Shown here: positions 2,731 through 3,057 of the stretch, one piece after another
How the letters are laid out: every line of letters begins with the position of its first letter
Position numbering within the stretch: position 1 is the first letter of the stretch
DNA from: Escherichia coli
GTDB taxonomy: Bacteria > Pseudomonadota > Gammaproteobacteria > Enterobacterales > Enterobacteriaceae
Assembly (NCBI RefSeq): GCF_030013595.1
Contig: NZ_CP122768.1
Direction: 5' to 3' (one strand)
Length of the DNA stretch: 64,000 nt
Position numbers and translations under genes: made by a program
The notes under the pieces: generated by a model
Database searches by the model: none
What the model was told of the DNA's origin: nothing
What the model saw: the letters and a program-made list of their open reading frames with translations, nothing else

Positions 2731-2844
2731 TAACCATAAACCGTTTTTTCCGGGAATAAACCGTTTAATCAAATTCACGCGGTGAATATAATTGCTCATT
2801 ATTCCCCCATTGCATTTGATGTTATGACATACGATAAAAAATAC

Positions 2845-2858
2845 TGTATATATACAGG
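2845..2858. promoter_or_regulatory. Perfect palindrome CTGTATATATACAG upstream of a small ORF (operator-like; resembles an SOS box but with non-canonical spacing)
   Basis: Read directly; CTG-N8-CAG rather than the LexA CTG-N10-CAG. Confidence 0.3.
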
Positions 2859-2877
2859 GTTTCTGTCAGGGGGAAAT

Positions 2878-3057
2878 ATGAACACACACGAGGCGATCAG
2901 CAAATTACCGGATACGTGCCGGGCTGTAATCAAACGAGAAGAGGGGCGCGTAGTGATTGTACGCGTCCTCAGCGACGACGAGCGGATTGCCAGCCTGCTG
3001 GCGTTTCTCGAGTTGGCAGAAACAGCTGGATATACTATTACACCCCCTGACGCGTAA
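2878..3057 (+). CDS. Hypothetical small protein (59 aa)
   Basis: ATG at 2878 preceded by agggggaaat; the longer ORF-track start at 2782 would place the palindrome and promoter-like sequence inside the coding region. Confidence 0.4.
   Translation: MNTHEAISKLPDTCRAVIKREEGRVVIVRVLSDDERIASLLAFLELAETAGYTITPPDA

Follow-up and report, generated by a model that had tools for sequence, protein, structure and literature searches.

The Gifsy prophages of Salmonella (Gifsy-1/-2/-3) show a module formed by a LexA box, dinI, gfoA/gftA/gfhA and irsA, in which about 20 bp separate the box from the first gene (Lemire et al. 2011, PMC3121763). LexA control of the dinI-gftA-irsA locus of Gifsy-2 was shown experimentally (PMC3121763). 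In the Gifsy loci, 19 bp lie between the box and the ATG, and nalidixic acid induces the operon 14-23 fold (PMC8072944, Table 1). The short repressors of the Gifsy type are not cleaved in the SOS response and their inactivation depends on an antirepressor (Lemire et al. 2011, PMC3121763). GfoA is the LexA-controlled antirepressor of Gifsy-1, and FsoA, of the Salmonella prophage Fels-1, is an experimentally validated antirepressor which inactivates the Gifsy-2 repressor (PMC3121763). Rem, encoded by the cryptic Qin prophage of E. coli K-12, was discovered via PSI-BLAST from GfoA and FsoA and is a validated DicA antirepressor that relieves DicA repression (Ragunathan et al. 2023, PMC10448788; Pfam PF27490). 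Furthermore, Tum of coliphage 186 and AntC of N15 are LexA-repressed antirepressors that inactivate non-cleavable repressors by the same logic (PMC3121763); Tum is about twice the size and has a fused DinI-like half (PMC3121763).

We analyzed a stretch of 64,000 nucleotides of the E. coli contig NZ_CP122768.1 (the window), where a perfect 14-bp palindrome precedes a 59-aa ORF. Most probably, this palindrome is the LexA operator, shortened by one TA unit, of a small prophage antirepressor gene, and both form part of an SOS induction module. Our analysis shows that site and protein have homologues, that synteny is kept and that the allele is unique, whereas the position of the promoter, the loss of LexA binding, the antirepressor activity of this particular protein and the effects on the cell are inferred.

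The locus resembles the Gifsy modules in several respects. The box is located at a similar distance from the first gene, and the small antirepressor-like gene lies directly upstream of an irsA/DUF1367 homologue, between replication genes and Q. In Gifsy-2, gftA has the LexA box and dinI on one side and STM1020 on the other, and the 59-aa ORF of the window occupies the gftA position. Furthermore, the prophage repressor of the relatives is short and predicted to be non-cleavable. However, the window does not show a dinI homologue (no DinI domain is found in the 59-aa ORF, whereas STM1019 of Gifsy-2 has one), so the predicted antirepressor is the first gene after the box. In addition, the window protein resembles GfoA and FsoA but not GftA, and its box is 2 bp short. 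The coordinates of all features are given in Table 1.

Table 1. Features of the window at the palindrome and downstream of it.
Feature	Position	Strand	Basis and remarks
Putative -35 hexamer ATGACA	2824..2829	+	Invariant in close relatives, always 17 nt from TATA(A/T)A
LexA operator remnant TACTGTATATATACAGGG	2842..2859	+	Core CTG(TA)4CAG at 2844..2857; orthologous sites CTG-N10-CAG
Putative -10 hexamer TATATA	2847..2852	+	Inside the palindrome; TATATA or TATAAA in relatives
Shine-Dalgarno-like AGGGGGA	2868..2874	+	Read from the sequence; kept in close relatives
59-aa ORF, GfoA/FsoA/Rem-family antirepressor homologue	2878..3057	+	Profile, BLASTP, phrog_340
9-bp hairpin followed by AUUUUCU, weak terminator-like	3073..3106	+	RNA folding, z-score not significant
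DUF1367 gene	3135..3731	+	Pfam PF07105, E=3.8e-77; 56% identical to Gifsy-2 STM1020 (irsA homologue)
YbcO/DUF1364 putative nuclease gene	3728..4021	+	Pfam PF07102
Late-gene antiterminator Q	4021..4692	+	Pfam PF06323
In-frame TAG in the large terminase gene, private to the window	9035..9037	+	tblastn: residues 1-620 in one frame, single stop

The palindrome and its orthologous sites

The palindrome, CTGTATATATACAG, is found at 2844..2857 in a single copy. The original prediction gave the correct sequence and perfect dyad, but placed them one nucleotide downstream (2845..2858), and the distance of about 20 bp it reported between the palindrome and the ATG of the small ORF is exactly 20 bp. It had also described the site as similar to a LexA box with the wrong spacing, and this agrees with our analysis: the inverted CTG/CAG motifs of the gammaproteobacterial LexA box are present (CTGT at 2844..2847 and ACAG at 2854..2857) and the spacer, (TA)4, is an AT-rich TA repeat near the LexA consensus, but the motifs are separated by 8 bp instead of the 10 bp of the LexA box (16-bp core), a separation found in the orthologous sites.

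Perfect palindromes of 14 bp are not rare in the window, which contains six of them versus 3.8 +/- 2.0 in composition-matched shuffles; the meaning of the site rests on its homology. With up to two mismatches, CTGTATATATACAG is expected 0.10 times in the window; no second copy was found across it, and the further copies in the prophage that the original prediction had proposed to search for are absent from this stretch. The canonical pattern CTGT-N8-ACAG has only one match elsewhere in the window (42297..42312), which corresponds to the chance level, and in the prophage and flank of a relative (33 kb) it matches the box before the small ORF alone.

At the homologous place, 39 of 39 related loci show a canonical 16-bp CTG-N10-CAG site, and (TA)4 is found in the window alone. 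These loci comprise 29 close relatives (one phage record, seven genomes, 12 IMG/VR contigs and nine metagenome contigs), nine distant family members and Gifsy-2; their sources are genomes of E. coli, contigs from phages and metagenomes, and prophages of Klebsiella, Raoultella and Salmonella, in addition to Gifsy-2 itself. The orthologous sites match the canonical E. coli LexA operator TACTG(TA)5CAGTA, and the core of the closest relatives is CTG(TA)5CAG. The closest one, which is 99.9% identical over 2.7 kb, reads TACTGTATATATATACAGGG, with a perfect-consensus core, and the 2-bp gap at the box is the sole indel in an 8.7 kb alignment with the window. The phage vB_EcoM-705R4 (88% identical), which represents the ST131 prophage, has the 16-bp site CTGTATAAATATACAG, and each of six further genomes with an identical or 90%-identical small protein shows CTG-N10-CAG. 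The nine metagenome contigs were obtained with a pattern that accepts N6-N12, and all of them have N10, as do the 11 IMG/VR contigs re-found with the same pattern. A lineage-specific pattern permitting N6-N12 gave no matches in the metagenome and genome collections. Furthermore, none of the 388 complete E. coli genomes having this promoter region shows the 14-bp allele, and the best match to the 101-base query has 103 bases.

Among the 29 close relatives, the spacer varies (TATATATA, TATAAATA, TATAAATG, TATAAATGC, TACATATA and TATAAATACA), but CTG, CAG and the distance between them are invariant, which points to a selected operator and not to a frozen sequence. The nine members with 34-47% protein identity, from Klebsiella, Raoultella, Salmonella and one Stenotrophomonas-labelled phage, have CTG-N10-CAG 19-31 nt upstream of a GTG start and DUF1367 downstream, and in Gifsy-2 TACTGTGTTTATATACAGTG precedes dinI-gftA-irsA. 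On the basis of these comparisons, the palindrome of the window is best described as a canonical LexA (SOS) box shortened by one TA unit. A chance palindrome devoid of function, which the six palindromes against 3.8 expected would allow, is extremely improbable, given that the half-sites and their position (about 20-31 nt before the start) are kept down to 34% protein identity and that the same arrangement is found in the experimentally characterised Gifsy locus (PMC3121763).

The original prediction also considered the palindrome as a possible operator of a phage-encoded repressor; neither this nor a distinct type of site is supported. A perfect dyad located at a promoter is what such a regulator might use; however, for the operator of a phage regulator one would expect conservation and further copies in the immunity region, whereas this palindrome is unique in the window, derives through the loss of 2 bp from a site with 16 bp in every relative, and its N8 spacing is kept by none of them. 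We consider this alternative very improbable, and the site was identified as the orthologue of a canonical LexA box minus one TA.

The loss of LexA binding was judged on half-sites and spacing. In the left-anchored register, 16 of 20 positions agree with the LexA consensus, but GGG stands in place of CAG; in the right-anchored register, CTG is replaced by TAC. Therefore, the site fits only one half-site whichever register is used. It is unlikely, but conceivable, that the 14-bp site binds LexA well enough for a partial SOS control through this half-site and nearby sequence: the left half (TACTGTATAT) agrees fully with the consensus half-site, and monomers of LexA are able to contact a half-site and then dimerise on the DNA. 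Against such residual control, LexA operators require a distance of exactly 10 bp between the two CTG motifs, and binding is abolished by changes in CAG (PMC5999292). With half-sites 8 bp apart, the LexA dimer is predicted to no longer bind the shortened box.

The original prediction placed the palindrome in the promoter region of the small ORF. This overlap is plausible, since the layout of ATGACA and TATA(A/T)A has a constant spacing of 17 nt in all close relatives and the putative -10 hexamer falls inside the box; however, a generic sigma-70 promoter and terminator scan of the + strand reported nothing useful, including the ATGACA/TATATA pair. The loss of TA leaves the -35 hexamer, the 17-nt spacer and the -10 hexamer unaltered.

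The small protein and its family

Searches with the 59-aa protein in Pfam (in a set without PF27490), NCBIfam and PDB sequences gave no match, and in PHROGs it only matched phrog_340, whose function is unknown. An exhaustive phmmer and profile search gathered a family of about 390 small enterobacterial proteins, most of them between 59 and 86 aa (59 aa in the window ORF), a range in line with the approximately 60-85 aa of a small protein of this kind. The longer entries look like N-terminally over-extended gene calls. Of 5,426 complete E. coli genomes, about 390-500 carry the gene itself, which is also part of the ST131 prophage at leuZ.

The family profile (A2) matched STM0898.2n of Fels-1 with an E-value of 3.9e-20. 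We identified this protein as FsoA from both of its ends: the N-terminal MNSQQMM is encoded by primer le154 and the C-terminal EAGIRFEEISNVG by primer le162 (PMC3121763, Table S1). By BLASTP, the 59-aa protein and FsoA share 49% identity in a conserved core of 39 aa (E=1e-9), therefore FsoA is a clear sequence homologue. The C-terminus of GfoA, deduced from primer le163 (PMC3121763, Table S1), is RRLGYRVTPPSDI and is similar to the end of the window protein, AGYTITPPDA; GfoA was compared by its termini only, as the primer-derived 36-mer was not found in IMG/VR. Rem of Qin matched the family profile with 19.8 bits, and many family members show a precomputed match to Pfam PF27490 (Rem). In contrast, BLASTP of the 59-aa ORF against GftA gave no alignment, and hhalign between the ORF family and the GftA family gave a probability of 9% (P=0.0036), too weak for a claim; outside its own family, the GftA profile likewise has FsoA as its best match (E=0.021). 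According to these homologies, the 59-aa ORF is assigned to the GfoA/FsoA/Rem family of small prophage antirepressors, of which it is an unannotated member.

The AF2 model of the 59-aa protein has a pLDDT of 92.7 and shows a helix, a beta-hairpin and a second helix; Foldseek of this model against the PDB gave nothing with E<1. An AF2 fusion of repressor, linker and antirepressor, with partly paired rows (DicA+Rem and GftR+FsoA), gave a pTM of 0.35, which is uninformative on their binding.

Homologues differ in their genetic context. The fsoA gene of Fels-1, a prophage whose repressor is of the CI type, belongs to the early-left operon, lacks a LexA box of its own and encodes 78 aa with an N-terminal extension. 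Rem is found, as in the window, upstream of Q-region genes and has a short DicA-type repressor as partner; however, it is a divergent protein of 83 aa, and its upstream region does not contain CTG-N10-CAG but only a possible decayed remnant.

This remnant is located in Qin about 75 nt upstream of rem and reads AAAAATACTTAAGTAGCGCGCAGGG, with CTT in place of CTG and a GC-rich spacer. Its flanks (AAAAATACT...CAGGG) and 16-bp frame are shared with the box of the window lineage, and it may be a decayed LexA box. A decayed box in Qin would fit the published absence of induction of the Rem/DicA circuit by mitomycin C.

Members of the same family were also found in Stx phages (locus L006, 2477..2659) and Klebsiella phages (locus L004, 2426..2680), in the early-left operon like fsoA. 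These phages have CI-type repressors and no LexA box nearby, and their small proteins may be antirepressors acting in trans on co-resident prophages of the Gifsy/DicA type.

Prophage setting and proposed induction route

The first approximately 28 kb of the window are the right part (late half) of a lambdoid prophage that combines a lambda-like head with a P2-like tail. The segment 10611..60506 is 99.95% identical to strain HCP5S3_I2 and runs from phage structural genes to yecA, tyrP, araFGH, otsBA, flhDC and mot/che genes. In close relatives, the prophage adjoins the leuZ tRNA (tRNA-Leu) gene beside pgsA. The DUF1367 gene follows the small gene in every relative examined, and farther downstream of Q the window shows two holins, a TIGR02594 lysin and the terminase.

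The hairpin between the 59-aa ORF and the DUF1367 gene is GC-rich, and a perfect TATAAT is found just upstream of it (3066..3071). It may act as a leaky terminator that sets the ratio between the antirepressor transcript and the downstream transcript. Furthermore, two 34-nt stretches of the DUF1367 gene (3243..3276 and 3485..3518) are 100% identical to sequences in CRISPR arrays of several E. coli genomes (H28-H31), which indicates that E. coli spacers target the irsA-like gene of this prophage family.

The immunity region of the close relatives is located about 14 kb upstream of the site, beyond the window, and encodes three proteins: a 130-aa protein with only an HTH_3 domain, followed by a YdaS/Cro-like and a YdaT-like protein. 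Over its full length, the 130-aa repressor (WP_000853106.1) shares 33% identity with STM1012, the repressor of Gifsy-2 (E=5e-23), and no S24 peptidase domain was found in it. It is therefore classified, by sequence, among the non-cleavable repressors of the Gifsy/DicA type; short repressors of this GfoR/GftR/DicA class are thus present in the genomes of the close relatives.

According to this organization, this prophage family would maintain lysogeny through a short Gifsy/DicA-type HTH repressor that would resist cleavage by RecA, and induction would be indirect. LexA bound to the 16-bp box would cover the -10 hexamer and the likely start site and block the antirepressor promoter, as the homologues suggest. 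DNA damage leads to the self-cleavage of LexA, and the antirepressor of about 60 aa would then be produced and bind the short repressor. The early lytic promoters, freed from repression, would then fire, again by analogy with the homologues. The DUF1367/irsA homologue, YbcO and Q may be co-transcribed with the antirepressor. The proposal of an antirepressor-type small effector under a damage-responsive switch, made in the original prediction, is in this way sustained by the FsoA/Rem-family homology and by the orthologous LexA boxes.

In the window, the (TA)4 allele, if real, would make the promoter blind to LexA, and the antirepressor gene is predicted to be constitutive. This should be lethal beside an intact Q and lysis cassette, and would be tolerable only if the prophage were otherwise crippled. 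The window has a nonsense codon of its own in the large terminase gene: the TAG codon at 9035..9037 is TGG in the nearest relative and in phage vB_EcoM-705R4 (L002 and L016), and the 620-aa protein is otherwise 97.7% identical. This copy of the prophage probably cannot package DNA.

The small terminase region shows, in addition to the full-length gene (7633..8199), a 59-aa N-terminal fragment (7072..7251) about 380 bp upstream; the counterpart of this fragment in a relative is annotated as a frameshifted partial copy of the small terminase.

Origin and meaning of the missing TA unit

Over 61 kb, the window and its nearest relative differ by 26 substitutions and four indels (TA, AAT, T8 to T7 and C7 to C6), every one of which is a deletion in a simple repeat of the window. 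The three indels other than TA are found at 25145 (AAT), 25189 (T8 to T7) and 27443 (C7 to C6), and the last one, 19 nt before the stop of a tail-fibre gene, alters the C-terminus of the encoded protein. An outgroup agrees with the nearest relative for three of the four, leaving the window as the outlier. These simple-repeat deletions suggest consensus errors or an elevated slippage in the window, and because all four are of the same kind they do not decide between a mutation and an assembly error.

We judge it slightly more probable than not that the TA deletion is a real mutation. The chance that it is an assembly or sequencing artefact, in which the genome has CTG(TA)5CAG and one TA was dropped in consensus calling, falls a little short of even. 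Such an error would explain why the 14-bp allele is missing from the 388 complete E. coli genomes, the 29 close relatives and the N6-N12 pattern scans, and four simple-repeat deletions out of four indels is a pattern typical of long-read consensus errors. Furthermore, the death of the cell expected from a derepressed antirepressor beside intact Q and lysis genes argues either for an artefact or for compensating defects that were not seen. On the other hand, a ratio of four indels to 26 substitutions in 61 kb would be ordinary in nature too, and real mutation also produces slippage in simple repeats such as (TA)5. The private TGG to TAG change in TerL is atypical of a consensus error and reveals a prophage copy in decay. 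In addition, the same box carries an IS element in another strain, so natural disruption of the site does occur.

This element is found in E. coli ECO21 (NZ_CP139887.1; locus L003, 2615..3960), where ISKox3, of the ISL3 family, interrupts the orthologous LexA box, has duplicated 8 bp of its target (ATAAATAT) and splits the promoter from the antirepressor gene, an independent disruption of this 16-bp site in nature. The same break-point is suggested in NZ_CM190135.1 (H27).

It is unlikely, although conceivable, that (TA)4 is a real operator mutation under natural selection which, together with ISKox3, would reflect either a recurrent host-side selection in prophage domestication or a low-frequency contingency switch of SOS control. 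If this were true, a one-unit slippage in the (TA)5 microsatellite of the box would uncouple a prophage trigger from LexA.

The LexA-controlled antirepressor strategy is already known from Gifsy, 186 Tum and N15 AntC, and the 14-bp spacing represents a private lesion or an error rather than a novel class of operator; in both cases the site keeps its identity. By itself, the 14-bp allele adds little: as a real allele, it would be a mutation that arose naturally in the operator and left a single prophage copy unresponsive to LexA; as an artefact, it warns of consensus errors in (TA)n-rich LexA boxes. Beyond this allele, a function is assigned to a gene annotated everywhere as hypothetical protein, which likely encodes an SOS-controlled antirepressor that triggers the induction of prophages of the Gifsy/DicA type, and this is relevant for predictions of how E. 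coli prophages react to antibiotics that damage DNA.
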